DNA of 64,000 nucleotides, taken from positions 256,001-320,000 of the forward strand of contig CAYLXA010000001.1 of assembly GCA_964387845.1 (NCBI GenBank). Direction: 5' to 3'. This DNA is from an uncultured bacterium (lineage in GTDB: Bacteria; Omnitrophota; Omnitrophia; Omnitrophales; Abzuiibacteriaceae). Below the pieces are notes generated by a model. The model ran no database searches, was not told the origin of the DNA, and saw only the letters and a program-made list of their open reading frames with translations. The translations under genes were made by a program, and so were the position numbers. This document shows positions 21,144 to 64,000 of the stretch, piece by piece (position 1 is the stretch's first letter; each line of letters begins with the position of its first letter).

Positions 21144-21168
21144 TGTGAGCAATTCCTCAATAGTTAAA

Positions 21169-21208
21169 AGTCTAATTTAGTCTTAATTAGTCTTAATTAG
21201 TCGCTAAT
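21169..21208. promoter_or_regulatory. Four tandem ~10-nt direct repeats (aagtctaatt / tagtcttaat / tagtcttaat / tagtcgctaat) 25-65 bp upstream of the HTH-REC regulator gene; candidate operator
   Basis: Direct repeats are visible in the sequence immediately 5' of the gene start. Confidence 0.35.
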
Positions 21209-21423
21209 ATAACTAATATCTCGGACAAGTCAACAAAAACTTTAAAAAAATTTTCATCGATCTGTCAAGTCTGACATAGACCACGTCTTTGATGATAAGC
21301 GAGAAGCATGTGTGGTGAGTTTTTCAAGGTTTGTTAGCACCGTGTTAGCACGGAGTGATATTTGGGCACAAACAAAAAAATAGCCATCGATGTAACTATC
21401 GATGGCTATTTTATTTACGAAAC

Positions 21424-21497
<74 letters not shown>

Positions 21498-21560
21498 ATA
21501 AAAGATAAAAACGAAGATGTATTATATAAAGCGAATGACAGATTTGCAAGCGCGGCTAAT

Positions 21561-28798: not shown

Positions 28799-28824
28799 GA
28801 ACCTTTTCTCCGACTTTACAAACC

Positions 28825-41900: not shown

Positions 41901-42238
41901 ACTTGCCGAACGCTGGTTTCGCCGCCGACGCTCGTAACACCGGCCTTCCGGAAATATTTTGAAACCACAATGTCCGTCGCAAGCTGCGTCCAAGACTTTG
42001 GAATTTCGGCGTCTTCCATTTTAAACACAACAGAACCATCGGGATTGCTGATCACAGATTTGCGGCGGTCCCACTCAATCTGATCGAAAGGATGAACGCC
42101 TTCTTGCGTGAATCTGCGCGCAATATGAATCCCTTCACGCGAACTAACACCGGCACCGGCAGAAAAATGTGCTTTTCCGTTTGATCCTGCTTCAGCCGAT
42201 TTATTCGCTTGTTTGGTTTTTTGTGTTTTTGCTGACAT
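38969..42238 (-). CDS. nrdJ: Adenosylcobalamin-dependent (class II) ribonucleotide reductase with a C-terminal Cys4 zinc-ribbon extension, 1,089 aa
   Basis: Large single-chain RNR with NrdJ-type blocks (PCSEY..., thiyl-radical region CNLSSINL, and C-terminal [27 protein letters not shown]). SD sequence GGAGG upstream. Confidence 0.88.
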
Positions 42239-42300
42239 TATGAATTCCTCCGTTATCGAATCCTTAAGCTACCTTACTAAGCCGCTTAGGAGCTTTATTG

Positions 42301-48030: not shown

Positions 48031-51000
48031 TTATGCGGAGTAGAAAACCTGCATTTGCGCGCGGAACTTGCCGACCAAATATGCCGCGGCTGATAATACA
48101 TGGTCCACAAACGCTTGGTTCCAGATTATGACCTTGTCTGCGATTTTTTCAAGAAATGGAACGGCAACCGCGTCATCTGAAACACCGATAATGGCCATGG
48201 AAAGACCGAGATTTCTAAGTTCGGCGCGCGCCTTGTGGTAATCCTCAACGGGAACAATCCTATTTTTTGGATTTGCAATGGTTGCATTAATCTCGTCGAT
48301 GACGCGAAGCTCTGCGCGGTTTGTCACGATCACCATGTAAGAACCGTAAACATCCGAAAGATTCCGGCCAACCACAGCCAGACTTCCCTTTTCGCCGAAG
48401 AAAGCGTTACGCGTAAACACTTTCCCTTCCCGCATCTCTGATCGATTTTGAAGTGCTGTAACAATCTGATTGTCAAAACTGCGAGCGTTTGACACAATCC
48501 GGCGCATTTCGCTTCTCGCTACCGGTGCAATCTCAGTTTGCAAATCTCGGAATAACGGATTTTCTTTGACTTCAACTCTTCCTTTAGCAATGGTTTTTTC
48601 AGTCTTTGCAATGACGCGGAAATTAAAAACTGTTTCACCCGAAACTTCGGACTGCACCTTGGCCATAATTAGCGGGAGCCCCAAAACTTCGCTTTGCACC
48701 TTGTCTCCGATTTCAGTATTATTGAAAGCATCTGCTTGATTTAGAATCGACTTTTCAATCGCGCTTTGAAAATCGATTGGTTTGATTTTTTGAAGGCTTT
48801 CCGGCAGCAATTCCTTGTTAATTTCGCCTTCCAAATGAATACTGACATCATAACGGCTTCCAATTGTCTTTTGAGCGATTGTAAAATTCCGGTGTTCGCT
48901 TGTTAGCGATTTGACGCCCGCCTGCTCATAAAATTGAGCATCAATAACGGGAACCTCGCGGTCTGCGATCTCTTCTAAAATCCGGACCGCGCGATGAATA
49001 TATTTAGCGTGCCGGAAACTTCTTCGCTCATTTTCGCTCAGAGTCAAACTCCTGTTTTTCATCTGCAATTCCGAATACCAGCGCCGGAATAACTTCATAA
49101 TTTGAATCAGCGAAAGCGGCTGGTTAGCGCCGAGCGGATTGGATGAATTTTGTTCGTAAATTCTATTAATATCTGTCTCGCTTTGAGCTGTCCAGCTTGA
49201 TTTTTCCTGATTTAAAACCGCTTTAAGTACCGGAATATAAAAACCTGTGTCACGCTCAATCCACCAATTAAGCACATAAAGAGCGGCGAAGCGCGCAGAT
49301 TGGCGCAGCATATCCGGATTAAAGTTTTTAGGCGCTACTTCAATGAGCGGTTTCCATTCATCAACCGGAATAACCGGTTCAGCTAAGTATTGAAGCAGTG
49401 TTTCGAGGCCAACCTCATTTCCTTTTCCAAGCTCATCGGCTCTTGTCTTCCGGATTGTAAAATTAGGATGCGACAAATTTCTAAGAAGTTTTTGCACCGA
49501 ACGCAGTTCTGATTTTTGGCTGCCGGCATCAGGCCCAGGCATCGGCTCTGTCAATTTTTGGAAACGTTCGGCCAATTCGGTTTCTGAGATTTTAAACATT
49601 TCGTCAACAAACGCTTCGGAACCGCCAAGCTCCCCTCCGTCTTCTCCGAATAAACGGACTTCGACTAACTCATGAAACGCAACGGCAAATCTTTCGGCCG
49701 ATATCCTTTCTTCATCCGTTTTGAATTCAAACTGAAAAGCGAGACGCGTATCCTTAACCGCTTCAAGCGTCATCAAGGCCATCGGATTATCCGCTTCGAT
49801 CCATTCAGCACTCCCTTTGTTCAGATTTTTGATCTTAACAGAAACATTTTTTGCTAGGGCGGCTTGCGCCATTTCGACAATGAACATCGCTGGACTCGCA
49901 TGGACACCTTGCCGGTTCTTGACCGTAACATTGATCTCAATGCTGTTACTTTCCCCTTCCCGCAATTCCGACATGTTTCTATCAGTCGGCGTTACGGACT
50001 TTTTATATTCATTAATCTGATGATCGAGAAAAGCTTCGTAACTATCAATGGCCTGGCTTGTTTGCGCCAACCACTCTTCTTCTTCTTTCAATAATAGGCC
50101 ATGTTCTTCTTTCATTCCCTTCAAAGCAGACTTTGCTTTTCGAAGCTCTGGTAATATTCTGAGATAATAATCGTTCGCTTCCGCGGCTAGAGAATTGCCT
50201 CGATCCGAAACTGACAAAATAAAGCTGCTGAAACGATTCAACAAAACTTCCGTGCGGCTCAATAAAATCTTAATTCTGAGCTGCTGTTCATCCAAAGCGA
50301 TTCGCCTCGGTTTGATAAGAGAATAATAAAGGAGCGCTCCGACTCCTATGCCTATCGCGCCCGCTGAAATACCGATAACGGTATAATTTCGTAATTCAGA
50401 ACGATGTTTAGGCGGACGGGGAAAACTTTGAAAAGGCCCCCTGCGCGCAGCGCGGACAGCCTGAATTCTCGCCGTCACTTCTTCAATAGTATCTAAGTCA
50501 CCGGCTAATTCTGCGTTATGAAGCTCGACTTCCAATCTTGCCAAATCCGTCGAGTGATGCGATTGGTCTACAGCAAACGGAAGCTCGATCGGCTCCTCAT
50601 TTTCCAAATCATTGCGCAGTTCCGAACGGACACCGGATTTTTCGCGAGGCGGCTGTTCAGATTTCGGCGGAACCGGGATCCATCCTTCCCACCGGCGGTA
50701 AACATGCGTAGGCCGCGTCCCTACTTCATTGGAAATATTTTTACCGCGCACGCCATGAACCTGATGGGCTTCATCACGCCGTAAAACTTCGGCTCTTTGT
50801 GCACGAAAATAATCATCCGTAAAATGAGTGATTTCGCCGGTTTTTAAGCCCGCGCGGCGCCAGTCAATGTGCCCTTCGGGATGAACAACACGCATATCTT
50901 TCTTCAGTACCTGCAAAGCTCCGGAAAATGCGGCGTGATTAAACAAAATAACTGTTTTCCCGCGATACTGCTCGTTCATGCGTTTCCAAAAAGCGGCGGC

Positions 51001-54000
51001 GCGGATGATTAAATGGGCAAAACTTTCGCCATGCTCAGGTTTCGCCAAAACACTCCACTTTTGATAACTTCGCGCGGCCTTGAATTGTTCCCGGCCAAAC
51101 TGCGCCTTAATTTGCTCATTGGTGAGCCCTTCCCATTCGCCTTGAAAAATTTCTTTTGTATCGGGATCAATCATCACTTTCAGTTCAATTCCTAATTTTT
51201 CACGTACCAACCGGATAAATGGTTCTGCCGTATCCCGCACACGCCCAAGCGGATTAATGATCACCACAAACTGATCCGGATTTGCTGTGATTTGGTCTTT
51301 AAACTTTTCAAATAATTTTTCAGCGTCAGCTTGCGCTTGCACGCGCCCTTTTGGCGTCAACTGCGCGCCTTCGTTATCCATACCGCTTCCCTGAAACCTC
51401 TTTCTCCCTGTTCTTAGCCCTTCCGCAATGATGTGAGTTTCTCCGTGGCGGATAACGTAAAGATCCAGATCAAGCGCCGGTGGGAAATAAGGCTCTTTAT
51501 AAAAAAGCTGCCCGGTCGATTGATTGACCCAAAAACCCATTTGTTGCAATGTTTCGGAAACATTTTTTCGCAATTCCACCCTCGCCTTCATTAATAAATC
51601 CGGCTGTATTGCACTGGTCGGAACCACAAGTTTGCCGTTTTCCCAATAGACCAGCGCACTCAAAAACTGGAACATGACCGGATCATGTTTTCTCACAAAA
51701 TCAGGGTCAAGCCAGTAAAGAGACTGGGCTTCAAAGAAAAACTCTCGCGCAGAAACAATGCTGTATCGGCTCAAAAACTGCGTTTCAATTTCTTCTTGAG
51801 AATAATCAAGCACCTGCTTCTTTTTCCCAAATTGCCTTTCAAGTGCCTGCAGCCTAGTCTCATAAATCCGTTTTGCAATCTGATAAACTGCTGTTTTATC
51901 GTGTGGAATGTTCACAATAGAGAGTGGTAAATTTTTATTCGCAAAATGCTCTAAGCGCTCAAAGTTAATCGGCAGCGCATACTGATTATGCTCAACGAGC
52001 GTTTCCGCAAGTTCGTGAGTCAGGAGCCGTTCTAAATAAGTAAAGTCCTTATCCCTCACCTTCAAAAATTCATCGCTCACTGGCCCGTCATAGGAGATCG
52101 GATGATCGCCCGCATAAAGTGAAAGAAAGATCGATTTAACATTGGACAGCACAGGATGAAGGGAGTGATAGGTAACGCCTCCCAAATGATCTCCGTTGCG
52201 TCTTACGATAGAACGCGCAATAAATACTTGGGCATTGAGCATTTTAAAAAGCGGTGCAATTGCAATGCCGGCCCTATGGCTTTCAAGGAAATGATTGAGC
52301 TGGCCATATAACTTACGCGCTAATCTCCAGTCGGTTTCACTGTTTAATCCATGCAATACATCAGTCCGAATATGTGCAGAAGAGCCTTGTAGATAACCCA
52401 AAACAATTTGACGCAATTCCGCCCTTGCCCCCTTTGAAGAAACATTTTCATGATCCGCTGGGGCCGAGGGGCTTTCTTGTAGTTCTTGCAAAATTAATAT
52501 CACTTCGTCCGGAAGTCCTAATGCGCTTAAAGCATCCTTGGCGCTTTCGAGCTGATGAAAACTGAAATGATCCGCAAATCTTTCTGCGCGAGACTTATTT
52601 CCCAGCAACCCTGTCAAAAATGGGATAGCCAACTCACGAAAATGAATGCACCATGGCTCCGCTTGAAGAATCCGGTTGGTCAGATAAAGCAGTTTTTTAA
52701 GCTGTTTAAACGATAAATCGCTATCTTGAAGCGCGGCACGGATTGCGTCATGGCCTGCATCCAACAACATAGTCTTAGGGGCAGCACTTTCCGCTTCGGA
52801 ATTCCTGAGCTCGGAACGTATGGCTCTAGATTTAATAGCAACGCTGCCGAGATACACATTGCCGCTCTGGTGATAAAGAAGCGGGTTTTCGTGGCCATCC
52901 ATGCTGATAACGTCTCCATCCGCGATATCACGGCCGGCGATGAGCCAAAGATGCTTTTCCGGCTGGAACACCATGTCCGGAACGCCATAAACGGCCGAAA
53001 TGCCTTCTTTCTGCGCCAGCGTTTCCGCATGCACTGAAATGGTCTTCGCTAAAATATGAACCCCTTTTGGAATCCGGTTAATCATTTCGGGATTCACTCT
53101 GTCCAAGATCAAAATAACGCCGTCAACATCCGCTCGGGGATGAGAAACAAGTTCGCCCAAAAGCTTTTCCGCTGCTTCTATCGAATTAGCCGCCAAACCG
53201 CGAATCGCACCGCCGCTCACGCCATGGCCGCGCGCAATCGGCTGATTGTCAGTCGAGTCGGCAAATTCCGGATATTGATCCGTCACAAAATCATCATTGC
53301 TTTGGACAATCCATATCTTTCCGCGCTCAATCGTGAATTCAAACTGCTGGTTGTAACGGAAAATGTTCTTGAGCTTACGCGCGTACTCGAACACTTGTGC
53401 GTAAAGCTCCGGCTGCAATGCTTCAAATGTTTGTTCATCCGGCCGGATTCGCTCACCATTTCCGATTAAAATGTAATTTTGGCCGGCACGGCTCATCAAT
53501 TGATCGCCGATCGAGTGAAACCGAAATTTACCTTGGAGCACGTCATGGCCGTCCGGAAGTGTTCTCAAAACTGCGTGCCCCGCGCCTGAAATTTTCCCGT
53601 CATCAGTCGGCTTTAAATTTCCGAAAACGCCTTTCTGCAGAATAACGACCGTTCCCCACTCTTGCGAAATCTGATGCCGTGTACGATACGCGCGTGCCTC
53701 TTCGGAGTCCCACGATGCATAAACCGCTTCGACTGCCATCATGACCTGATCCATCATGTCGTTTGGAATTATTTTGCCGTGCCGCGCCACGATTGCTTTG
53801 CACTGTTCCACCACTGCCTTCATGCCGTCTGCCGACAAATCTTCCTTTTCTTTAACATTCAAAACCTGCTCAAATTCCGCCTCAGGAATACCGAGCACAT
53901 TGATCGAAAATGACCGGATAAATTCCGCGTAGGTGTCATACGCAAACCACGCATCGCCGCTTTTTTGGGCAAGCGCTTCGGCTTCCGCGTCGTTCATGCC

Positions 54001-57000
54001 CACATTCGACACAGTAGCCAAAAGGCCGGGCAGCATGAAAGCAGAACCGCTTCGCGCGTACAAAATAAGCTTGAGGTCGGGATACTCGGAGTAGCGTTTG
54101 AGCCGTTCGATTTCGGCTGCGATTTTTTGACGGAATTCGTCCGACCTGAAAATGTCGGGTTTCGTCACTAACTTGGCGCTCAAGATGACACCCGGCGGTA
54201 CGGGAATCCTCTCGTGCGTCATGCGGATCAAGTTCAGGCCCTTTTTGCTCCAAAGCGAGAGAAGTTCCGGCCGTTCATCCGTTTCATTTTCGCCAAACCG
54301 GTACAAATGTTGCTCGAAATCATCCGGCCTTTCCGCGCCGGCATCCTCACGGATGGCTTCGTCCTGGCCTTGCGAAAGCGCAGAAGCGAGAACAGCATCA
54401 AATTTCATGAGCGCGCGGTCAAATGCCGTCGCGCCGGAATTCCGGATCAGCTCATCAATCACCGCGGCTTCAAGTCTCTCTTTTCCTTCAGGCGGAAAGT
54501 CATAAATTTGATAAGTCTGATCATCCTCTGTTTTGGTTTTGATTTTAAAGAGGCTGGTATGTTCGCGCCATAATTTTGCCAGATCGTGATAACCAACTTC
54601 ATCCAAGCTGTATTGCATGGCCGCGCGCATGGTGTTATTTAGTTGCCGGGTAATTTTGTGGACTTCGGCCTCAAGCGTGTGGACCAAATCGTAGAGCTGC
54701 GACGCCTTAATGCTGCCCGAATCAAGCTCAACCATCAATTGATCAAAATCGACACCACCCAGCCCTGAAGCCTGAATAAACCGGCCGAGCGCAATGAGAT
54801 TGGGCAATTCGCGCCGCAAATCGTCTACAGAATTTATTTTTTCAATCTTTTCCTGGACGTGAGCAATCTTTTCCGAAGCTAAAATCGATAATTTCTCGCT
54901 CATTTCAACCAACGTGCGTAAATCATATAGATAATCACCTTCTTCATGCATATCGTTCCACTCCTGGTCTATATCATCCGCATCCTCATCGGCCGAATCT
55001 TCGCCGTCCCGCCCAATGCTCTTCTCTGCCTGTCCCAATACTTTTTTCTGATTTTCCTCTCCGGAAAGCAAAAACTCTTTAAGATCATTTTGCACTTTCA
55101 CGATGGCGGAGAAAATGGCCGCATGATCATCAGAATCGATCAACATAAGCAGCCGATCGTAATCCTCCCGCATAAACCGGGTAATGGCCGTCATTTTCTT
55201 TTTCAAGTACCCACCGTCACGCAGATCTTCAGTTTCTCCTTTTAAGAAAGGAACGATCGTCGCGACGCGAGTTCCGAAATGATCCGCAAAAGCCAAATAA
55301 AGTTGAGTCATTAATTGAACGCGTTCATAGTCAATCTCGGACACATCTTCATCCCGGTTCGCTTCTTCATAAATCGCGACTACTTCACGCTCCGGAATGT
55401 CCAGGATTTCATCCAGAAAAGCCTCCGGATCGCTTTTGCTGATTTTCCCTTTGGCCGCAAGCGCTTTGACAAAACGGTTCAAGAGTTTTGAATAAGTTTG
55501 AAGAGTCGCTGGATTGAAATCTTTTGTCATATCATCCCGCAGCAGAGTCCAGTTGCTTTCCTTTAAAATAGACTCATCAAGCGTCAACCAATAAGCAAGA
55601 ACTCTTCTCGTATTCTCAAAGTCACTTCTATTCAAGTTTCGATGAATACCGTCTCTAAAATGGCTGAACCATCCGCGGCCAAACTCGCCGGGATAAGAGG
55701 CATTATTATCAAGCCGTCTTGAATAGCTGATAATACGGTCCTGCGAATTATCCGTAGAGACGCCGCCCTTGCGTTCGGCTTCGATGACTTTCATTAAATA
55801 AAAATAGGCCGCTCGGGCGTTTGGTTGATGGAGCAAATACAAGGACATCTGCGGATACTCTATGCGCTTTCTGCCTTCGCTTGGAATATCACGCACAAGG
55901 CCTTGGGCTGCCACAAAAGCAGCGGCAAGCGGATCCGCCGGTGAAACGCTCAGCAAGATAGAAATCAGTTCCCTGAAAAATTCGTGGCCTATGGTTCGGA
56001 GGTGCAGCAGAAGGTGAATCAGTTTACCCAAGTCGTCAGGACTTGCTTGGCGGAAAGTTGCTTCTAAATCATGGTGGATATCAGCTTTGATGTAATGCTC
56101 ATTAAAGTAAGCGGCTGCCAACTCAAGAAAAATCCGGTTCTCTTCCGGCGAATTTGTTTTAGAGAGGTAAATCGGAATCAAATGCTCTTTAAAGAAAGCA
56201 TCCGTCATTCTATAGCGGTCGGGCGACATCGCGCTCGACACGTACCACAAGTAGCTCTGTTTCTTATCCAGCGGTAAATCTGCTTTTAAAATAAACTCGC
56301 GAATCAAATTCTGCAGATGCTCTTTAGAATTTTTTTTAAGTAGGTCGATAATCGCCTCTTTCCTCGCCCCGACGGCTTGATTTTGCTCAAACGACAGGTG
56401 CTTGCCGCCTCTTCCAAAACTTAGTTTCATGAGTGTTTGGTAATCGCGCAGCGCTTTTTCGAATTCTTTATAAGACATTGGGTTTGTACGACCGTCCGAC
56501 CTGAGCTCGGAACGTTTTTGGGCAGTAAGTGTTTTTAAATTCGGAAAAAGTGTGCGGAACGGTTCGCCGAAAAAGAGGCGGCGTCGGACAGCCTCTTTGC
56601 GGCGATGAATAAATGCGGCTTGAGTCGGAAAAATAAGATGCCTCGGCAGAGGAGCGTATTTTAAATAAACAGGAGCTGATGTATTGATACCAACATTTAA
56701 TTCCGGGTCTTGCAAATTCGGCAGCGGAAGCGTGAGCACCGCATCCCGCAGAGGATTTTTACTGCGGTCACCGATTGTGCGAATCAGCATGCTGGCTTGA
56801 ACCTCGCTTACATCCCACGGTGAACGGAATCCCAGCCGAACCCAGTCAGATTCATTACGCGATAAAACTTCCGCGACCAGTTTTTCTATTTTTTCATTCG
56901 AAATTTTTCGGCCCGTTTCAACACCGTTCTGATCCAGTTCGGGAACATCGGTCAGCATCCGGCTTAGATATTCCGTCATGGATTGTTTTCCGGTGCGGCG

Positions 57001-60000
57001 TTTTGTATCGTCCGGCCAAAATCTGGCGCCATACTTCAGTGAGAATATTTTTACGCCCAGATCTGTGGATCTGTAACCAAACTTCCAATCATGAACGTCT
57101 TGATCCAGCATGACCGATAAGGCCCATAGCATCAAATTTCGATACGTGAAACCCGGATAAGACTGCGAGAATTTTCGTGTAGACGGCGGTATATCGGCCA
57201 AACGTTCTTCGGGCCATGCCGATACAACACTAATGAACCGCTTGACATAATCGGCCAGCAGCTCGTTGTCCGAGGGTTTCTTGATTTCTTTCCCGTCAAA
57301 TTCCTCAATATGAAGACCGGTCGGACGCAGATGTATGACTTGCGTCAAGCCCAATGTCCAGTAAGCGTAAAATAAATCCTCTAAACCACCCGCAAGCAGA
57401 TGATCCAGACGGCCTGCAAATTTTTCAAATTCGTCCAGGTCTTTGAAATAGGGATCGATTAACGTTGCCAAAAATTGGTTGAGGTTGCCGAATTTCTTGT
57501 CAAGGCCCCGGTTTTCCCATTCCCGGCGCAATTCGACGCCGAGCTCGCGTAATTCCCTATTCGAAAATCCTTCGGGCAATACCTTGCTCCAATAAATGCG
57601 CCTGTCCTCTGAGCCGCTTCTGGGCCAAAACCGATTGGAGTCGTGCGGGCTCAATAGAAACGTCAGAGCTTCAAGGATATCGCCTTCCGTCAGACTGTCA
57701 TAAATCTTATTCGGAGAGCCCGCTTGATCCATCAAATCGCGAATCACATCCATAACTTGATCGACTTTTGAACGTTGGGTGACCGCGGCAGTTTGCCTAA
57801 GTTCCGAACGGTTTTTCAGAATTTGCCGCCGTTCTTCGAGCGTAAAAAATTGTTTTTCGTAAGCTCTTTTTGCGGCTTCCCGGATTTTTCTATTAAACCG
57901 GTCTAAATCAGTTATTTCCTTCTTTAAAAAATCAAGCCACTGTTTTGGTTCAATGGTCATTTCCCCGAAAAATTCGTCGCTCAAAAGCATCAACAGCTGC
58001 ACAAATGCGACTTTGTACAAAGGATCTTCCTGATCCAAGGCAGCCCGCATCGCATCTGATACCGGAAGTACCGGATTCAGATAAGGGAACAGGATTTGAG
58101 CCGGATAGGACGACCGGATTAATTCATTCAATTTAGCTTCTACTTCAAAGTAAGCATGGGCCAACAACCCCTGCTGATCGCCTTCATACCCGCCCAGCGC
58201 ATGAGCCAGCAAACTTCCGGGACGCAGGATAGCTTTCATCACATTAATCCAATAGAGCGATGTTGAGTAATCGTTTTCTCCCTTATAAAATTCGTTTGCA
58301 AACACATAGGCATCGGAATGGCTAAGTTCCTCCTCTAAAACTCCGCTCCGGTATAATTGTGCGACATACCCATAATCGCCCAAACTATAAAAATGCATTT
58401 GAATCCAATCTCGTAAGTAAGCGACGGGTGATTGATCAAAATTGGGAAATTGATACTGGCCCGTTTCATATAACTTTTTCAAATTTTGGTAATAATCAAA
58501 ATTTTCTATCGAAGGAACGTCGGTGCCTTCAATAATGACAATATGCCTGTCTTTCGCAAATGCACTTAGGTAACTGTCGCTCTTTCCGTCTCTCGATTTG
58601 AGGCGAACGGTGTAAACCGGAACAAACCGGCCTGCCGCAGAGCGCTGAGATTCCCTTTTGATAATTTTACCGACCAAGAGTCCGCTGCCGTTCACTATGT
58701 CCACGATCAGGCCACGTGGAATTAAAATATCGTCCGCGATTTTTGTTCCTATTTTTCCGATATCATAAATAGAAATCAAATCTTTGTGGCCAAATGAAAA
58801 AGCGGCATCAAAATCCGGTGAAAGAGGCCTGAGAACCTGGTTGAATGTTTCAACGGCCTCAAGACGGTTTAAGTCATTTAGACTGGCTTTTTCGACTAGG
58901 TACTTTAGCTTCGGCCAATAGCTCACCCAAAACCATTCCACAACATCAAAGCTGGGGCTATCCGGATTTAGGAGCCTAAACTCTCTGATTAAGTTGAGAA
59001 TTTGATTCGCCTGGCTGGTGTTGAGCGTGATCTTTCCGCGCAAAGCTTTGATAATGCCTTGCGCATTTAAATTTTGAGTTTCCAAAAATTCTTTCAGAAC
59101 ATCTACGGTAAAAAAGCGTTTAATATTTTTTACGCTTAATTTCGAAATGATGAGAGCATGCAGCGTTTGAACCGGATCCGTATTTACTGCTTGTGCCGTC
59201 TGATTGCGCAATTCAGAGCGGAGTAGCTCAGACTGCGGGGCAGCGGTTTGACCTTGCAACGGGATTTCCCAGAAATTGCGGGCGTTGCGGGCAGAATCGA
59301 AGAATGCTCTGGCTTTCGCACGGTTGCCTTTGGTTAACTCGAATAATCCAAAAATAATTGCGTAAGCTCTTTCCGTAAAGCTACGCGACTTTTTTAGCAC
59401 AAAGTCACGGGCCAGCCACCGGTAACGGAATGCGTCAAAATGATACTGAAAACCGGCTTCCGGATCGTGAATCTTTTTAATTGTATTGCGCGAGGCTCCC
59501 TGAGAGTAGTGCTGATCTAAATAATCGCGGCCGTAGTTGGTAATCCCTGCATAGATCTTCTTAAAGCCCGAACGCCGCGCGACATCTTGAAGAATCTGAA
59601 TCGCTTCCGGCATCAGTTCATCGAAATATTTTGCACCGTCATTGTTAAACTCGAAACTGTTGACCGTTAGTACCGGATCTCCATTGTCTTCCGATGCAAT
59701 CATCCACATCTGTGCCCGATGCTGATAGGCATCGCCTGAACCCTTGTGATCGATGTCCGCCAGGATAATTCCGTCGTCACTCAGGAGAGAGGGCAAAATC
59801 CAGGAGACAAAATGCTGCAGAGAAATACAATTTCCGATGGCTTCACTTGAAGTGAGAAAATCTATCGCGCCTTTCAGGGTCTTTTTGTCGTGAATTCTTA
59901 TTCGAATTCCCTTTTCTTTATTTTCGTAAACCCTGCCCTTCTCAAATTCAGAAACATTGATGCCGATTGCCTGCATTTTTTTCTCAATGGCTGAAACATG

Positions 60001-63000
60001 GCCTGTTTTGCGAAGTCTTTCTGACAAATAATCACGCAATCTTTTGTAATACAAAATTCCGGGCGCAATATTGAGCCGCGTGCTGATCAAAAAAGTTCCT
60101 GGCGCGATAATTCCCATCAAAATAAAAAACAAGGCAGCATTTGAAATGAGAGGATAAATGGTAAAAACGCCGAACCCGACCAGAAACGCGAAAGCGGTCG
60201 GCGCCACCCAAGCATAAATGGGCCTTGGCGGCTTTCTAAGGCCTTTCAAAATGCGTGGATTCATCGTGACAATGTCGAGAGCATCTGCAATGCTGATCCC
60301 GAGTGCGCGCCGCACTTTGGCAATTTCGGAAATTTTCATGCGGCTCAGGCGCGTGGCTTTCATAAATTTCTGAACCGCCATGAGTTTGTCAAAAGCGTCT
60401 TTTTTAAGACTGTCCCGCACCGCTTTGTCTTCGGAAAGCCTGCGCATAGCTTCTTGATTTGAGGCTGACCAGACTACGGCAATAACTTCTTCCGTTTTTT
60501 TCCGCTGGTCAGGCGAAAGTTTATCCAAAAACTTAAGCACATTGACGAGATCGCCGTCTTTAACGGACACGTTGTACAGAATTTCTTCAAAAAAGTACCG
60601 CAAATTCCGGTTTGGACTTGGAAAATATTCGAGCAACTTTTCAAGTTTCGCGATTGCGCGCGGAGGATAGCTCATTTTCTGCGCAACGGGATTTTCATTA
60701 ATTTCAGCGAGAATGGTTTCGATAAATTTTGGATATGCGCGGAGCTCGGATCGCTGCTCATCGGTTTTTTTTGCGATTGCCCTCCTTTCAGACTTATGCT
60801 GAAACCACCACATTCCTCCAAAAAGAAGCAGAAGCGGCGGGATCAAGGAAGCATTGTCCGTAAGCCAGGCAACGGGCCCGGTCACAACAAGAACAAGCGA
60901 GGCTGTAATTGCCTTAAGAAAATATTGTTTCCGGAACTTAAACCACCACGTTTTATACTGAGTCGGAAAAATCTTAACGCGGTTCGATGGTTGAATTAAA
61001 TCCGTTACATAACCAATCACTTCACCTTTTGGGAAAGCATACTCCAAAGGCTCGACCGGATACCCATAAACGTCTAAATATTGTTTTTGGGAAGGATCGG
61101 CATATTCGATCGATACAAGCTCGGGCTGTTTGCCGGATTTCTTAACATAATCGACAAGCCTCTTAGGCCCTTGATTGAGCGGATAAGCAAAATAAAGAAC
61201 TGATTTAAATCCGCATGCCCGGGCATAGTTCTCGATGATTTTTTGAATTCCCTTCGCCTTTGCATCAAAAATTCGCCCCTCCACACCGTCCACAAATAAA
61301 ATCGGCTGTTCTTTTCCGTCTTGATCCTTATAAATCGCGGCGGCGATTCTGGCCCGTACCCGGCGGCCTTCGCGCGTACGGAAATCAATCGCTGAAATAC
61401 TTTTGTTGTGCAAATAATTAAACGGGCCCAGCGCACCTTTTGTTCTCCGGTTTAATTTGTCAAGCCACGTGTTGCCGCGAAGCGACGCCGAAGAAAAGAA
61501 ATCCTTTTGATTGGTTAAATCAAACCACGGATCGCGCCGCCAAATCCGGGCTTCTACAATTGAGTCCGGTAAATTTCCCCAATCGTCAATCTTGGAGATA
61601 CTTTTCTGAAGGTATTGATTGGCCTTCGCGGCATTGGGGTTTACATATTGGCCCAGCTCTTGCAGCAACTTTTTTCCTTCCTCGACAGGCAATTCACCTC
61701 TTTTATTCCTGGCCAATTCTTCTTTGTGCGCATTGAAAAATTGAGTGACCGACTTCTTACCCTCCTTTAAATTGGGCGTGTACTGTCCGGGCTTAAACTG
61801 GCGGTCTTCGGTTGAACCCAAAAAATCCCTGAGTATTTTCTGGATAAACTCGGGGATGGTTTGATTTTCCGCGTCTTCGAATTCCCCTGCCGGTACTTTT
61901 TCAATATTATCCCCGCGAATTTGATAATAGACTTTGTAATCCGGATTATCCCAATTTTCGTTGATGCCGACCGATTTGAGACGCTCCATGGTTTGAATCG
62001 CTGCCTCGGTCTGGTCAAACCATTGCCGGTAACTTCGCCGCTTAAGCATGGAGGCCAGATCCAACGCGGAAATTGTTTTCCACGAAAAAATGAACATTCG
62101 TTTCGCAAATACCGCCAAAATGTAAACCAAGGCTGTGAAACCTGACGCCACAAACAAGCTTTCAATCCATCCTGCGGGATCAGAATTGTTGATCATTTCC
62201 CTAATATTTAAGCTTGCTAAATTTCCATCCATCCAAAAAGAAATAGCGGAATAGAAAATTGTGAGCGCTGCGCGTTGAACCGAAGCATAGAAATATCCAA
62301 TAACGCCAGTGAAGGAAACCGCGAGAAGATGCAGCCACGGGTTCTGAATGAGCGCCGTACGGGCGTGCGCAATCCGTGCGCGTTCTAATTTTTCTTCGTT
62401 AATTTTGTTCAAGTCAATCTTTAAACTTTTAAACTTTTTCCACAAAAATTTCAGCTCCGGGAAACCGTCTTTCTCCATCCGCTCGTCGATTTCGGCAATG
62501 GTGAGATCTGAATTCTCACGCAGTTCACTGGCTGCCTTTGGATTTTTGCTTTTTCCGTTTCCGGAAAAAGCGTTGCGCGTCAGAACACCGATCGTTTTAA
62601 ACACCAGCGCGGTGTTATAAAGTGCCGACCGGTCCCGGATATCGTTTAACTCCAGCTCTATGTCATGCGTGTCCATGCCAAACTTTCCGGTTCCGATACC
62701 CCGCTTTAGAGCGCTTGAGCTGAGAAAACCCGGCTTGGTGTGATGTAAAACACTTTCGATATAATTTTGATCAACTTCCAAAGGTAAGCGCGGCCTTGGC
62801 CCAAACCATTGCATGTCACCGCGGACAATCGACAAGAGCTGCGGAAGCTCATCAAGCCCCGTTCTGCGCAAAAACCATTCGTAAGGCGTAATGCTTTCAT
62901 CTGAAATGTTGAAATCAAGTTTCATGGTTTTAATTTTTCGTATCACAATCGTCTTGCCCTGAAAACCGATTCGCTCTTGAATAAAAAACATGGGGCCGCT

Positions 63001-63996
63001 TGTGATAATTTTCCGGATAAAGGCAAGCAAATAAACCAGCGGAAGAGTTAAAACCCACAAAACGAGCGCTGTGATTCTCCCTGCCGCCTCGGACAGATCA
63101 GGTTTCTTTGCCGCGGGAAGCGATAAAGCATTGGTTTCCTTCAAGCGCAATTCCGAGCGCGCTTTATCGATGTCGTTCGATTGAGAAGCCGAAGTCGGTA
63201 TTTCTCCGGTTGGGTGATTGCTGCTTACCGCATTTGCTTTTCCTTTTGAATGCAAATAAAAGGTGCCGACGGCGGATGTTAAATGTCCCAATCCGGCCAG
63301 AAGCACAACCTCGTTTGAATCTTTTCTGGATCCAAGATACGCGGTTTCTGCCATAAAAGATCCTCTGTCTTTTGCTTTGTCGTTGGGATGTGTCAAATAA
63401 TCAGGGGCGAATAACTGGTGCGACTCGATAGATTTCAACCATTTGGTAAAAAGCAGAATGAGAGAAACCACAAGAAACCACGGTGCAAAAAATGCAGCTA
63501 TTAAACTATCCCGAAGCGAATCCCCATGATCAAATATTTCACTGCCAACCTGCAATTTGTAAAGCAGGCGAAAATTTCGCTCGTGAAAAAATGGGATGCC
63601 TTCTCTCGCTAAGAAATAAGATAACTCCCGTACTTTTTTCTTGTTTAGCAGCATAAATTCAGAACCATGCACAATGCCAATCACATGAAAAGTACGCCCG
63701 CCGATTTTGACCATCTTACCGGAAAAACCAAAGCGTTCCGCAATCGGCGAATCTTGAAATTGCGCCATGGTTTCAGAAGCCGCCTTTCGCCAAATTGGAG
63801 TAGCGAAGTCTGAAAATACTCGGCGGTGATAACCGATATTTTTGCCTAAAAGACCGGCTTTTTTAAATTTCTGAAACAATTCGATGGGTTTTGATGATTC
63901 AATCATCCAAGTTCCGATAGTCCTTTCTGAAATTTTTAATTCACCCGCTCGATCCCAAAATTGTTTCTCAGACGGGTAACGTAAAACATTGATCAA
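48031..63996 (-). CDS. Giant polytopic membrane multidomain protein, at least 5,321 aa (15,966-nt uninterrupted frame). Domains identified from N- to C-terminus: possible TraB-like region, PGT (polyprenyl-phosphate hexose-1-phosphate transferase) domain, several TM clusters, PPDK/PEP-synthase-like ATP-grasp plus PEP-utilizer phospho-His domain, histidine phosphatase (PGAM-like), HPr-like domain, and an unassigned C-terminal ~540 aa
   Basis: Single ORF ending at a stop at 48031. The frame is still open at 63997..64000 (the track start at 63996 is a TTG), so the true 5' end may lie beyond the window. PGT domain: FIQERIGFQGK...TGLDELPQLLSIVRGDMQWFGPRP. PPDK_N region: GLNLIRMTHERIPVPPGV, ARSGSAFMLPGLLATVSNVG, RAYRTRHQISQEWGTVVILQKGVFGN...SGAGHAVLRTLPDGHDVLQGKF. 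Phospho-His domain: AKTISVHAETLAQKEGISAVYG. PGAM-like: LYVIRHGETH. HPr-like: KNRQGVHASPAMF. Confidence 0.85.
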   Translation of the reverse strand: MINVLRYPSEKQFWDRAGELKISERTIGTWMIESSKPIELFQKFKKAGLLGKNIGYHRRVFSDFATPIWRKAASETMAQFQDSPIAERFGFSGKMVKIGGRTFHVIGIVHGSEFMLLNKKKVRELSYFLAREGIPFFHERNFRLLYKLQVGSEIFDHGDSLRDSLIAAFFAPWFLVVSLILLFTKWLKSIESHQLFAPDYLTHPNDKAKDRGSFMAETAYLGSRKDSNEVVLLAGLGHLTSAVGTFYLHSKGKANAVSSNHPTGEIPTSASQSNDIDKARSELRLKETNALSLPAAKKPDLSEAAGRITALVLWVLTLPLVYLLAFIRKIITSGPMFFIQERIGFQGKTIVIRKIKTMKLDFNISDESITPYEWFLRRTGLDELPQLLSIVRGDMQWFGPRPRLPLEVDQNYIESVLHHTKPGFLSSSALKRGIGTGKFGMDTHDIELELNDIRDRSALYNTALVFKTIGVLTRNAFSGNGKSKNPKAASELRENSDLTIAEIDERMEKDGFPELKFLWKKFKSLKIDLNKINEEKLERARIAHARTALIQNPWLHLLAVSFTGVIGYFYASVQRAALTIFYSAISFWMDGNLASLNIREMINNSDPAGWIESLFVASGFTALVYILAVFAKRMFIFSWKTISALDLASMLKRRSYRQWFDQTEAAIQTMERLKSVGINENWDNPDYKVYYQIRGDNIEKVPAGEFEDAENQTIPEFIQKILRDFLGSTEDRQFKPGQYTPNLKEGKKSVTQFFNAHKEELARNKRGELPVEEGKKLLQELGQYVNPNAAKANQYLQKSISKIDDWGNLPDSIVEARIWRRDPWFDLTNQKDFFSSASLRGNTWLDKLNRRTKGALGPFNYLHNKSISAIDFRTREGRRVRARIAAAIYKDQDGKEQPILFVDGVEGRIFDAKAKGIQKIIENYARACGFKSVLYFAYPLNQGPKRLVDYVKKSGKQPELVSIEYADPSQKQYLDVYGYPVEPLEYAFPKGEVIGYVTDLIQPSNRVKIFPTQYKTWWFKFRKQYFLKAITASLVLVVTGPVAWLTDNASLIPPLLLLFGGMWWFQHKSERRAIAKKTDEQRSELRAYPKFIETILAEINENPVAQKMSYPPRAIAKLEKLLEYFPSPNRNLRYFFEEILYNVSVKDGDLVNVLKFLDKLSPDQRKKTEEVIAVVWSASNQEAMRRLSEDKAVRDSLKKDAFDKLMAVQKFMKATRLSRMKISEIAKVRRALGISIADALDIVTMNPRILKGLRKPPRPIYAWVAPTAFAFLVGFGVFTIYPLISNAALFFILMGIIAPGTFLISTRLNIAPGILYYKRLRDYLSERLRKTGHVSAIEKKMQAIGINVSEFEKGRVYENKEKGIRIRIHDKKTLKGAIDFLTSSEAIGNCISLQHFVSWILPSLLSDDGIILADIDHKGSGDAYQHRAQMWMIASEDNGDPVLTVNSFEFNNDGAKYFDELMPEAIQILQDVARRSGFKKIYAGITNYGRDYLDQHYSQGASRNTIKKIHDPEAGFQYHFDAFRYRWLARDFVLKKSRSFTERAYAIIFGLFELTKGNRAKARAFFDSARNARNFWEIPLQGQTAAPQSELLRSELRNQTAQAVNTDPVQTLHALIISKLSVKNIKRFFTVDVLKEFLETQNLNAQGIIKALRGKITLNTSQANQILNLIREFRLLNPDSPSFDVVEWFWVSYWPKLKYLVEKASLNDLNRLEAVETFNQVLRPLSPDFDAAFSFGHKDLISIYDIGKIGTKIADDILIPRGLIVDIVNGSGLLVGKIIKRESQRSAAGRFVPVYTVRLKSRDGKSDSYLSAFAKDRHIVIIEGTDVPSIENFDYYQNLKKLYETGQYQFPNFDQSPVAYLRDWIQMHFYSLGDYGYVAQLYRSGVLEEELSHSDAYVFANEFYKGENDYSTSLYWINVMKAILRPGSLLAHALGGYEGDQQGLLAHAYFEVEAKLNELIRSSYPAQILFPYLNPVLPVSDAMRAALDQEDPLYKVAFVQLLMLLSDEFFGEMTIEPKQWLDFLKKEITDLDRFNRKIREAAKRAYEKQFFTLEERRQILKNRSELRQTAAVTQRSKVDQVMDVIRDLMDQAGSPNKIYDSLTEGDILEALTFLLSPHDSNRFWPRSGSEDRRIYWSKVLPEGFSNRELRELGVELRREWENRGLDKKFGNLNQFLATLIDPYFKDLDEFEKFAGRLDHLLAGGLEDLFYAYWTLGLTQVIHLRPTGLHIEEFDGKEIKKPSDNELLADYVKRFISVVSAWPEERLADIPPSTRKFSQSYPGFTYRNLMLWALSVMLDQDVHDWKFGYRSTDLGVKIFSLKYGARFWPDDTKRRTGKQSMTEYLSRMLTDVPELDQNGVETGRKISNEKIEKLVAEVLSRNESDWVRLGFRSPWDVSEVQASMLIRTIGDRSKNPLRDAVLTLPLPNLQDPELNVGINTSAPVYLKYAPLPRHLIFPTQAAFIHRRKEAVRRRLFFGEPFRTLFPNLKTLTAQKRSELRSDGRTNPMSYKEFEKALRDYQTLMKLSFGRGGKHLSFEQNQAVGARKEAIIDLLKKNSKEHLQNLIREFILKADLPLDKKQSYLWYVSSAMSPDRYRMTDAFFKEHLIPIYLSKTNSPEENRIFLELAAAYFNEHYIKADIHHDLEATFRQASPDDLGKLIHLLLHLRTIGHEFFRELISILLSVSPADPLAAAFVAAQGLVRDIPSEGRKRIEYPQMSLYLLHQPNARAAYFYLMKVIEAERKGGVSTDNSQDRIISYSRRLDNNASYPGEFGRGWFSHFRDGIHRNLNRSDFENTRRVLAYWLTLDESILKESNWTLLRDDMTKDFNPATLQTYSKLLNRFVKALAAKGKISKSDPEAFLDEILDIPEREVVAIYEEANRDEDVSEIDYERVQLMTQLYLAFADHFGTRVATIVPFLKGETEDLRDGGYLKKKMTAITRFMREDYDRLLMLIDSDDHAAIFSAIVKVQNDLKEFLLSGEENQKKVLGQAEKSIGRDGEDSADEDADDIDQEWNDMHEEGDYLYDLRTLVEMSEKLSILASEKIAHVQEKIEKINSVDDLRRELPNLIALGRFIQASGLGGVDFDQLMVELDSGSIKASQLYDLVHTLEAEVHKITRQLNNTMRAAMQYSLDEVGYHDLAKLWREHTSLFKIKTKTEDDQTYQIYDFPPEGKERLEAAVIDELIRNSGATAFDRALMKFDAVLASALSQGQDEAIREDAGAERPDDFEQHLYRFGENETDERPELLSLWSKKGLNLIRMTHERIPVPPGVILSAKLVTKPDIFRSDEFRQKIAAEIERLKRYSEYPDLKLILYARSGSAFMLPGLLATVSNVGMNDAEAEALAQKSGDAWFAYDTYAEFIRSFSINVLGIPEAEFEQVLNVKEKEDLSADGMKAVVEQCKAIVARHGKIIPNDMMDQVMMAVEAVYASWDSEEARAYRTRHQISQEWGTVVILQKGVFGNLKPTDDGKISGAGHAVLRTLPDGHDVLQGKFRFHSIGDQLMSRAGQNYILIGNGERIRPDEQTFEALQPELYAQVFEYARKLKNIFRYNQQFEFTIERGKIWIVQSNDDFVTDQYPEFADSTDNQPIARGHGVSGGAIRGLAANSIEAAEKLLGELVSHPRADVDGVILILDRVNPEMINRIPKGVHILAKTISVHAETLAQKEGISAVYGVPDMVFQPEKHLWLIAGRDIADGDVISMDGHENPLLYHQSGNVYLGSVAIKSRAIRSELRNSEAESAAPKTMLLDAGHDAIRAALQDSDLSFKQLKKLLYLTNRILQAEPWCIHFRELAIPFLTGLLGNKSRAERFADHFSFHQLESAKDALSALGLPDEVILILQELQESPSAPADHENVSSKGARAELRQIVLGYLQGSSAHIRTDVLHGLNSETDWRLARKLYGQLNHFLESHRAGIAIAPLFKMLNAQVFIARSIVRRNGDHLGGVTYHSLHPVLSNVKSIFLSLYAGDHPISYDGPVSDEFLKVRDKDFTYLERLLTHELAETLVEHNQYALPINFERLEHFANKNLPLSIVNIPHDKTAVYQIAKRIYETRLQALERQFGKKKQVLDYSQEEIETQFLSRYSIVSAREFFFEAQSLYWLDPDFVRKHDPVMFQFLSALVYWENGKLVVPTSAIQPDLLMKARVELRKNVSETLQQMGFWVNQSTGQLFYKEPYFPPALDLDLYVIRHGETHIIAEGLRTGRKRFQGSGMDNEGAQLTPKGRVQAQADAEKLFEKFKDQITANPDQFVVIINPLGRVRDTAEPFIRLVREKLGIELKVMIDPDTKEIFQGEWEGLTNEQIKAQFGREQFKAARSYQKWSVLAKPEHGESFAHLIIRAAAFWKRMNEQYRGKTVILFNHAAFSGALQVLKKDMRVVHPEGHIDWRRAGLKTGEITHFTDDYFRAQRAEVLRRDEAHQVHGVRGKNISNEVGTRPTHVYRRWEGWIPVPPKSEQPPREKSGVRSELRNDLENEEPIELPFAVDQSHHSTDLARLEVELHNAELAGDLDTIEEVTARIQAVRAARRGPFQSFPRPPKHRSELRNYTVIGISAGAIGIGVGALLYYSLIKPRRIALDEQQLRIKILLSRTEVLLNRFSSFILSVSDRGNSLAAEANDYYLRILPELRKAKSALKGMKEEHGLLLKEEEEWLAQTSQAIDSYEAFLDHQINEYKKSVTPTDRNMSELREGESNSIEINVTVKNRQGVHASPAMFIVEMAQAALAKNVSVKIKNLNKGSAEWIEADNPMALMTLEAVKDTRLAFQFEFKTDEERISAERFAVAFHELVEVRLFGEDGGELGGSEAFVDEMFKISETELAERFQKLTEPMPGPDAGSQKSELRSVQKLLRNLSHPNFTIRKTRADELGKGNEVGLETLLQYLAEPVIPVDEWKPLIEVAPKNFNPDMLRQSARFAALYVLNWWIERDTGFYIPVLKAVLNQEKSSWTAQSETDINRIYEQNSSNPLGANQPLSLIQIMKLFRRWYSELQMKNRSLTLSENERRSFRHAKYIHRAVRILEEIADREVPVIDAQFYEQAGVKSLTSEHRNFTIAQKTIGSRYDVSIHLEGEINKELLPESLQKIKPIDFQSAIEKSILNQADAFNNTEIGDKVQSEVLGLPLIMAKVQSEVSGETVFNFRVIAKTEKTIAKGRVEVKENPLFRDLQTEIAPVARSEMRRIVSNARSFDNQIVTALQNRSEMREGKVFTRNAFFGEKGSLAVVGRNLSDVYGSYMVIVTNRAELRVIDEINATIANPKNRIVPVEDYHKARAELRNLGLSMAIIGVSDDAVAVPFLEKIADKVIIWNQAFVDHVLSAAAYLVGKFRAQMQVFYSA

Positions 63997-64000
63997 TAGC

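Follow-up and report, generated by a model that had tools for sequence, protein, structure and literature searches.

We analyzed a 64-kb window (the whole stretch of DNA under study, 44.7% GC) from the chromosome of an uncultured Omnitrophota bacterium and found that the giant protein encoded at its right-hand end is punctuated by a recurring pentapeptide, R-[S/A]-E-[L/M]-R, which lies between unrelated, protein-sized modules. From this pattern we infer a cellular polyprotein that is processed by a protease at lineage-specific junctions, and we put the chances that this reading is correct, for the cleavage and the protease alike, at about even. The junction motif is absent from the earlier note on this DNA, which was made from the sequence alone, and it is the most informative feature of the giant protein.

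Within the window, the gene runs for 5,322 codons without a stop on the minus strand (48034-63999); its stop codon is at 48031-48033, and it is open at the right window edge. An open reading frame (ORF) tool returned the same coordinates that the earlier note had reported for an uninterrupted giant frame, 48031..63996 (5,321 aa, counted from the first in-window TTG). At the base composition of the window, a run of this length would stay free of stops with a probability of approximately 1e-138, and the composition is even along the frame. The suspicion that the protein might continue past the window edge was also correct: the full-length protein, designated P0001 (public protein collection, source NCBI; 409-kb contig), has 5,975 aa, the window frame represents its C-terminal 89%, and its N terminus lies beyond the right edge. 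Unless stated otherwise, residues are numbered along the window frame, in which window aa i equals P0001 aa i+653. The giant frame belongs to a real gene of 5,975 codons on the chromosome of a diderm bacterium.

The tetrapeptide SELR occurs in 11 exact copies in the window translation, compared with 0.2 expected, and a strict form of the motif, [RK][SAVPG]E[LM]R, has 17 copies in P0001 and none in the other open frames of the window (19,418 aa). We built a motif logo from 39 sites in P0001 and two related proteins, P0002 and P0012. Glu and the final Arg are present at 39/39 sites, with Ser/Ala before the Glu and Leu/Met after it; Arg at position -1 is present at 30/39, although this position was outside the search pattern. 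The residue that follows the first Arg is always small (S/A/P/V/G), and the replacement of Ser by Ala, Val, Pro, or Gly at about 30% of sites makes Ser phosphorylation or O-modification of RSELR unlikely. There is no conservation outside the pentapeptide, and the flanks are poor in hydrophobic residues. At the level of DNA, the sites are alike only as far as the amino acids demand: both codon families are in use for Ser (TCN and AGC), Arg (CGN and AGR), and Leu (TTR and CTN). This synonymous variety at invariant residues indicates that selection acts on the peptide.

The positions of these sites follow the domain structure of the protein. Motif sites split P0001 into 22 segments, 16 of which are module-sized (71-1,228 aa), and every recognizable domain of P0001 sits between two of them (Table 1). 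The phosphoglycosyl transferase (PGT) module is flanked by sites at window aa 282 and 491, the histidine phosphatase by 4141 and 4459, and the HPr-like domain by 4677 and 4830, while the head related to pyruvate phosphate dikinase (PPDK) ends at 3729. Across four giants, 0 sites fall inside annotated domains, with a combined chance of approximately 1e-4. A loose match inside segment S10, G-VELR-R, has another residue in place of the Arg at -1 and is unlikely to be a junction.

Five to six distinct families are recognized in P0001, and approximately 84% of the protein is without a family match even at E<=1. Segment S6 matches Bac_transf (Pfam PF02397) at window aa 309-473 (E=1.7e-27; 96.6 bits versus a cutoff of 27; profile positions 7-177/179). 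NCBIfam PGT subfamily and equivalog models match S6 but stay below their full-length cutoffs because they describe the larger WbaP/WcaJ type. The features GLDELPQL, FGPRPR, and an N-terminal membrane helix with Pro, ITALVLWVLTLPLVYLLAF, can be read directly from the sequence. The Asp-Glu dyad (DE in DELPQ), which is catalytic in PglC, is present, and the DELPQ and GPRP motifs together with the Pro-containing helix make catalytic activity plausible. In its full-length match, motifs, Pro helix, and standalone-like size, S6 resembles the PglC-type small monotopic PGTs; unlike them, it lies inside a giant ORF between junction motifs and is not a gene of its own in a glycan-synthesis cluster.

Segment S11 ends with a PPDK-type nucleotide-binding domain (about aa 3234-3569) that aligns with residues 7-338 of Clostridium PPDK (PDB 2r82, E=4e-47) and with NCBIfam TIGR01828 (PPDK; E=1.7e-62, but only model positions 2-334/865), a relationship much stronger than the 44 bits scored by Pfam PPDK_N alone would suggest. 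A probable swivel domain follows (about aa 3626-3706); its alignment with PPDK 422-504 brings the catalytic His into register (TSHAA versus SVHAE), and Pfam PEP-utilizers (PF00391) covers this whole domain at a sub-threshold score (15.4 versus 23.1 bits). No phosphoenolpyruvate (PEP)/pyruvate TIM barrel comes after the swivel, where PF02896 has no match and a junction motif stands instead; S11 is therefore not a PPDK but only a PPDK-like dikinase head. It shares with PPDK and PEP synthase the ATP-grasp domain and probably the swivel, with its His in register, and differs in that it has no barrel, ends at a junction, and has about 730 aa preceding the head; barrel-less relatives include rifampin phosphotransferase and glucan-water dikinase.

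Segment S14 is a generic branch-1 histidine phosphatase (His_Phos_1 at 4180-4362; E=3e-20; 73.1 bits versus a cutoff of 21.7) with RHGET and NHAAFSG present, and its nearest solved structures are PhoE, Shb17, and CobC. Segment S17 matches PTS-HPr at 4688-4762 (E=8e-8; 32.7 bits versus a cutoff of 23). Its best PDB relative is NPr (5t17), with which it shares G-x-HA-x-PA (GVHASPA versus GMHARPA), and its score with NCBIfam TIGR01003 (HPr) is below the cutoff (23.2 versus 47.9). Like HPr and NPr, it is above the Pfam threshold and keeps the active-site His motif; unlike HPr, it has about 60 extra C-terminal residues, and domain searches found neither Enzyme I nor EII in the giant protein or the 64-kb window. 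P0001 also has at least 10 transmembrane (TM) candidates and an N-terminal signal peptide, and its modules further include an S-adenosylmethionine (SAM) methyltransferase and a lipoprotein-like HEAT module.

Profile and PDB searches thus uphold the four enzyme-family calls of the earlier note (PGT, PPDK-type head with swivel, histidine phosphatase, and HPr), with PEP-utilizers alone scoring sub-threshold among the Pfam profiles. The residue ranges that it gave were accurate to within a few residues, it was right that no PEP-binding TIM barrel is present, and the membrane association that it deduced from TM clusters is confirmed by hydrophobic helices at the positions that it named. By eye only, a GxxH...E..R...GxGH pattern in the membrane segment S5 is reminiscent of TraB/PrgY/Tiki; this resemblance was not confirmed, with no Pfam match at E<=1 and the pattern absent from the other giants.

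Table 1. Modules and junction motifs of the giant protein within the window
Feature	Window aa	Coordinates	Strand	Description
Giant ORF		48031..63999	-	5,322 codons + stop
S5, C-terminal part		63157..63999	-	Polytopic membrane module, no family match
KA-R-SELR-L	281-285	63145..63159	-	Upstream bracket of PGT module
S6		62530..63144	-	Complete small monotopic PGT, 205 aa site to site
A-SELR-E	490-494	62518..62532	-	Downstream bracket of PGT module
S7, 589 aa		60751..62517	-	TM helices and soluble region, no family match
R-SELR-A	1083-1087	60739..60753	-	Junction motif
S8, 507 aa		59218..60738	-	Two TM helices, no family match
R-SELR-N	1594-1598	59206..59220	-	Junction motif
S9, 466 aa		57808..59205	-	No family match
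R-SELR-Q	2064-2068	57796..57810	-	Junction motif
S10, 428 aa		56512..57795	-	No family match
Loose G-VELR-R	2154-2158	57526-57540	-	Inside S10
R-SELR-S	2496-2500	56500..56514	-	Junction motif
S11, 1,228 aa		52816..56499	-	About 730 aa without assignment, then PPDK-type dikinase head
PPDK-type ATP-grasp domain	~3234-3569	53293..54300	-	PDB 2r82, TIGR01828
Probable phospho-His swivel domain	~3626-3706	52882..53124	-	PPDK alignment; junction where barrel would begin
R-SELR-N	3728-3732	52804..52818	-	Junction motif
S12, 127 aa		52423..52803	-	No assignment
R-AELR-Q	3859-3863	52411..52425	-	Junction motif
S13, 277 aa		51580..52410	-	No assignment
R-VELR-K	4140-4144	51568..51582	-	Junction motif
S14, 314 aa		50626..51567	-	Branch-1 histidine phosphatase, RHGET
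R-SELR-N	4458-4462	50614..50628	-	Junction motif
S15, 71 aa		50401..50613	-	No assignment
R-SELR-N	4533-4537	50389..50403	-	Junction motif
S16, 139 aa		49972..50388	-	TM anchor NYTVIGISAGAIGIGVGALLYYSLIKPRR at residue 2 after junction, then coiled-coil-like region
M-SELR-E	4676-4680	49960..49974	-	Junction motif
S17, 149 aa		49513..49959	-	HPr/NPr-like phosphocarrier, GVHASPA
K-SELR-S	4829-4833	49501..49515	-	Junction motif
S18, 329 aa		48514..49500	-	No assignment
C-terminal 160 aa		48034..48516	-	Four clustered motif copies; protein end -YSA

To place P0001 among its relatives, we drew on a handful of sequences, all chosen through the PGT module. Only four proteins match the giant at E<=1e-10, and all of them are giants; a search of 5.8 billion proteins, with an index that is weak on giant proteins, covered the query by its self-match only. 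The nearest relatives are annotated as Candidatus Omnitrophota or Omnitrophica. The closest, P0002 (5,133 aa), has just the N-terminal leader and the PGT module in common with P0001; its other identifiable modules are a methyltransferase and DHH, and it is without PPDK, HPr, and His_Phos. Yet P0002 carries 14 sites of the same motif, only between domains and amid unrelated modules, and a partial Candidatus Omnitrophota protein, P0012, carries the SEMR variant. No close orthologue of the giant gene, such as the earlier note had proposed to look for in related genomes, came out of the protein search, whose index is weak on giant proteins, or out of the genome and metagenome scans. A second entry of P0002 (P0151, source Logan) differs by 1 substitution in 5,133 aa, so such giant frames are reproducible. 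More distant relatives carry a histidine-kinase ATPase, malic enzyme, GNAT, starch synthase, VTC, a Ser/Thr kinase, or a subtilase. Because the cargo differs among relatives, the module set is variable cargo rather than a conserved pathway.

In an exhaustive HMMER search with the PGT module, the nearest relatives often turned out to be parts of very long proteins, and genome scans placed them in Omnitrophota metagenome-assembled genomes (MAGs), within frames of >3,700 aa that run off contig ends; PGT identities in genome and metagenome scans were mostly <=45%. We applied unbiased k-mer discovery with shuffle controls to these giants and obtained motifs well above the shuffles: KPEAPDM in L003 (8 sites), x-T-N-[AS]-[AS]-V-L in L004 (15 sites), and SSSPV in P0008 (6 sites). 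Third codon positions vary in the KPEAPDMA, L004, and SSSPV types as well. In L004, A or S follows the conserved Asn; in the KPEAPD type, the Asp is followed by Met-Ala. An N-glycosylation sequon reading of E-T-N-A-S fits only 2/15 L004 sites and was rejected.

The PGT module allows these motifs to be compared at equivalent positions. It is 205 aa long in P0001, 208 aa in P0002, and 221 aa in L004 (standalone metagenome PGTs are 222-254 aa), and the motif that flanks it on either side is R-SELR in both P0001 and P0002, V-N[AS][AS]VL in L004, and of the SSSPV type in P0008 and P0006. P0004, P0010, and L003 have modules in common but in a rearranged order, and their homology blocks end 0-10 aa from KPEAPDMA sites. 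By this sequence comparison, the motif appears to be punctuation and not part of the modules.

Several further regularities of these giants were observed at their termini. The leader of P0001 and P0002 (about 80 aa, 30% identical) ends at the first junction. Almost all complete members begin with a Sec-type signal peptide with an A-x-A-like site, e.g., ...IAYG before D or ...IAWA before NPD (N termini compared: P0001-P0005, P0013, P0015, P0021, P0022, P0033, P0035, P0064, P0067, and P0102). PGT-containing giants and C-terminal fragments nearly always end in a small dipeptide (-YSA, -KAA, -RAA, -HAA, -EAA, -AAA, -RSA, -NAA, -TKA, -ESA, or -IAA among P0001-P0004, P0011, P0015, P0022, P0033, P0064, P0067, P0102, and P0152-P0158). 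The last Ala is invariant in an alignment of the P0003-type C-terminal domain, and ordinary PGTs end otherwise. In sequence, these dipeptides resemble ssrA/ClpX or Prc/Tsp recognition signals. A C-terminal domain common to P0001/P0002 and the P0003/P0004 lineage was suggested by MAFFT and rejected at an hhalign probability of 0.2%; a profile search with the P0003-type domain returned giant-gene fragments only, not P0001 or P0002. A polytopic membrane module is duplicated in P0003 (aa ~1085-1260 and 3319-3500) and in P0010 (aa 2742-2917 and 3191-3369), and the copies in P0003 are preceded by PEAPAGLR, a degenerate KPEAPDMA.

A short, sharply bounded, lineage-specific linker peptide between protein-sized units is what viral polyproteins display, and it is on this likeness that we propose cutting. 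According to this model, a chain of at least 17 unrelated modules of about 70 to 1,230 aa would be translated as one unit and then cut at the R-[S/A]-E-[L/M]-R junctions by an endopeptidase peculiar to the lineage, so that an operon would be expressed as one protein, as in RNA viruses. The cut may fall between the first Arg and the small residue and would then leave new N termini of Ser, Ala, Pro, Val, or Gly; more speculatively, cuts between R and S, N and A, and D and M in the different lineages would give native-like, stable N termini, and a clan-CD-like specificity for Arg/Asn/Asp would match such cuts. Each released product could then take up its own compartment in the cytoplasm, membrane, or periplasm.

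Signals located within the giants bear on this model. In P0001, a junction is directly followed by the first residues of segment S3, AFKILKLIQLFSLIGLASVGC, which look like a lipoprotein signal with a lipobox, and segment S16 likewise opens with a TM anchor. L004, a protein of >6,800 aa encoded on the plus strand, contains two internal twin-arginine translocation (Tat) signals (aa 3657-3675 and 4742-4775), located 10 and 21 aa past T-N-A-A-V-L junctions; one is a Pfam TAT_signal match and the other has a textbook cleavage site between AYA and DE, and the sequence behind them has no Pfam family match. A Tat signal works only at a free N terminus. The position of these Tat and lipoprotein-like signals directly after junctions therefore argues more for products that really become separate than for a fusion of purely historical origin. 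Topology points in the same direction: in an intact P0001 chain the SAM methyltransferase, which lies between the signal peptide and the next helix, would be expected in the periplasm, where SAM is not available, and this argues for separated products. SELR junctions contain no Met, start codon, or Shine-Dalgarno sequence, and their Leu is often CTC, CTT, or TTA; without a start codon, separate products could arise only by proteolysis.

Candidate proteases are encoded within some of the giants. P0008, of the SSSPV type, carries a Peptidase_S8 module in cis, and the zinc-metalloprotease-type HExxH motif is enriched across the family (13 versus about 2 expected), at P0002 4582; P0003 1831; P0004 4013; P0010 2402; L006 153, 661, and 3023; and P0042 1547 and 2217. 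A conserved module, WLLCERLNHELSHS, is among the bearers of HExxH. The P0002 HExxH segment was not confirmed as a cis protease, as it has no Pfam match.

Several observations weigh against cleavage, which is inferred from sequence. P0001 has no HExxH motif, and we found no protease in P0001, in the 64-kb window, or beside P0002; there is likewise no conserved neighboring gene in the surroundings of P0001 and P0002. Single-sequence AlphaFold2 models of candidate protease modules were poor (pLDDT 44.8 for S5 and 41.4 for the P0002 HExxH segment). The C-terminal 160 aa contain four closely spaced copies of the motif, two of R-SEMR (aa 5162-5166 and 5186-5190) and two of R-AELR (aa 5228-5232 and 5258-5262). 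Cuts there would release fragments of 20-60 aa, and these copies may lie inside a folded domain. Hydrophobic stretches after junctions are not enriched overall (4 versus 2.7 expected, p ~0.28), and the signal peptides that follow junctions may be nonfunctional leftovers of gene fusion. The KPEAPDMA lineage has no junction between HATPase_c and the PGT or between the alpha/beta hydrolase and malic enzyme, and k-mer discovery gave no clear motif in P0003, P0102, P0011, or P0013. The sequence set is small and wholly PGT-selected, and the punctuation is described for giants found in that way.

The strongest competing explanation, which we take seriously but consider unlikely, is an uncleaved, membrane-tethered multienzyme megaprotein in which the pentapeptide is a linker with another role, such as partner docking, a folding or translation pause, or a hinge. 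The missing protease for the RSELR type, the crowded C-terminal copies, and the unpunctuated domain boundaries of the KPEAPDMA lineage all fit this explanation. Against it, internal Tat and lipoprotein-like signals after junctions would be useless inside an intact chain, and the SAM methyltransferase would end up on the periplasmic side. A docking peptide would have to recur about 20 times in one protein and take on a wholly different chemistry in sister lineages, and we know of no precedent for a docking motif so repeated and so lineage-divergent. Pausing motifs, for their part, would be expected to be universal and not lineage specific. A published treatment of such proteins as intact membrane-anchored architectures speaks in favor of the uncleaved chain (bioRxiv 10.64898/2026.06.07.730766).

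It is far less probable that the motifs are DNA-level scars or targets of cassette exchange or recombination and that the peptide itself is functionless. Modules are indeed shuffled among relatives with breakpoints at the motifs, and P0001 and P0002 have a common motif but hardly any common cargo, as such exchange would produce. However, third positions are free and both codon families of Ser, Arg, and Leu are used while the residues are invariant, and 15 degenerate nucleotides are too few for homologous recombination; on this codon-level evidence we discarded a DNA repeat or recombination scar. Least credible of all are internal translation starts at the junctions, to which the native-looking Met-Ala of KPEAPD-M-A lends some color but which the lack of a start codon or Shine-Dalgarno-like sequence at SELR and of GGAGG, with varying third positions, at KPEAPDMA contradicts, and an assembly or annotation artefact joining genes, which is at odds with the approximately 1e-138 chance of the frame, the separate recovery of P0002 as P0151, and giant frames in several Omnitrophota MAGs.

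The polyprotein reading has counterparts in known systems. Viral polyproteins have protease-specific junction motifs. P0001 is like the picorna-, poty-, and nidovirus polyproteins in having protein-sized units in one ORF and a short, recurring, lineage-specific linker peptide, and its relative P0008 has a protease module in cis, as those polyproteins do; unlike them, its gene is cellular and chromosomal and lies among housekeeping genes. In Porphyromonas gingivalis, the multidomain precursors RgpA, Kgp, and HagA are cut at recurring Arg/Lys sites into catalytic and adhesin products. These differ from P0001 in that they comprise a few related adhesin domains, are processed by their own protease, and are secreted, whereas P0001 joins unrelated cytoplasmic, membrane, and exported enzymes.

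Membrane-anchored multienzyme giant proteins of Omnitrophota have already been described (bioRxiv 10.64898/2026.06.07.730766; bioRxiv 10.1101/2023.11.21.568195), under the heading of multi-enzyme metabolic clusters and in catalogues with thresholds of at least 10,000 aa (916 proteins; Nielsen & Lui, bioRxiv 10.64898/2026.06.07.730766) and at least 30,000 aa (West-Roberts et al., bioRxiv 10.1101/2023.11.21.568195). P0001 resembles these giants in its many enzyme families, its signal peptide and TM helices, its methyltransferase, kinase/phosphotransferase, and sugar-metabolism cargo, and its sequence, which like theirs is largely unique between genomes; unlike the catalogued proteins, it is, at 5,975 aa, under the threshold of at least 10,000 aa. 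The earlier note's statement that no protein of this architecture had been described therefore stands only for the exact combination, since we found no same-architecture protein, and not for the class. Both papers are silent on junction motifs and Bac_transf (bioRxiv 10.64898/2026.06.07.730766; 10.1101/2023.11.21.568195), and a full-text literature search for the motif strings returned nothing relevant. The architecture class is not new.

Whether giant bacterial proteins act as single chains or are cut is a question raised in the literature (bioRxiv 10.1101/2023.11.21.568195; PMC11573180). Lack of cleavage-point information has blocked per-segment analysis (bioRxiv 10.1101/2023.11.21.568195), and a survey of proteins >5,000 aa names protease motifs in huge proteins as an open problem (PMC11573180). 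A junction peptide that can be read from sequence predicts exact product boundaries, which makes the cleavage question testable, and allows segment-wise structure prediction and protease finding by covariation. We tentatively extend the polyprotein reading to Omnitrophota and their allies, which might express operon-sized sets of unrelated proteins (cytoplasmic enzymes, membrane proteins, lipoproteins, and Tat/Sec-exported proteins) as polyproteins cut at a lineage-varying peptide (R-S-E-L-R, T-N-A-A-V-L, KPEAPDMA, or SSSPV) that coevolves with a dedicated protease. It is similarly possible, though we would not yet count on it, that the junctions give the first cleavage code to be read for a polyprotein system of cellular origin. 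If so, cellular bacteria would use virus-like polyprotein expression, the missing cleavage map for bacterial giant proteins would be at hand, giant genes would be reannotated as many proteins each, and the system could supply orthogonal protease/site pairs for synthetic polyproteins. Should confirmation of cleavage fail, the motif would remain an unexplained strong selection signal at module boundaries.

The phosphotransfer modules of P0001 invite a separate reading. PPDK and PEP synthase work through autophosphorylation of a His, and by analogy the dikinase head, which is without the acceptor domain usual in these enzymes, would autophosphorylate its His from ATP. The histidine phosphatase lies about 420 aa and the HPr-like carrier about 950 aa further along the chain, and the three could form an ATP-driven phospho-His writer-carrier-eraser relay, a doubtful proposal that draws on this analogy. 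The relay cargo set is not conserved in relatives. The earlier note had gone further and taken the PGT-PTS/PPDK fusion, with its novel domain logic, as the best candidate for an undescribed system; a single integrated system is not supported by the comparison with P0002, which shares only the leader and the PGT; because the cargo of P0001 and P0002 is wholly different, there is no evidence for a specific PGT-phosphotransfer pathway.

The giant gene has ordinary chromosomal neighbors on the same strand. These include a class IV aminotransferase, whose start is about 24 nt past the giant's stop, PurH, a Mur-ligase family protein, MnmE, and a class II ribonucleotide reductase, as well as an AsmA-like protein, enolase, PurN, and a polyprenyl synthetase. 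Such surroundings indicate a diderm bacterial chromosome and not a mobile element. The class II (B12-dependent) ribonucleotide reductase (1,099 aa, 38972-42268, minus strand) has a C-terminal TSCPD domain, and the match to its barrel domain is split in two, possibly by an insertion.

Other genes of the window were noted in passing. A 2,080-aa protein with SpvB, TcdB-middle, FG-GAP, and RHS-repeat matches, Tc-toxin or RHS-like, is encoded at 1983-8222 on the minus strand, adjoined by an Ig-like/Glucodextran_B protein (8197-9738). Two-component signaling genes are unusually dense (2-649, 12426-13247, 14158-16476, and 20532-21176, all on the minus strand) and comprise several response regulators, one with a fused MerR-type helix-turn-helix, and one 7TM-HisKA histidine kinase. 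At 27803-28843 (minus strand), an AAA_17/AAA_18 kinase-like domain is fused to a CMP/dCMP-type or MafB19-like deaminase domain. The sole RNA gene detected in the window is a tRNA-Met (CAT) at 21423-21498 on the minus strand.

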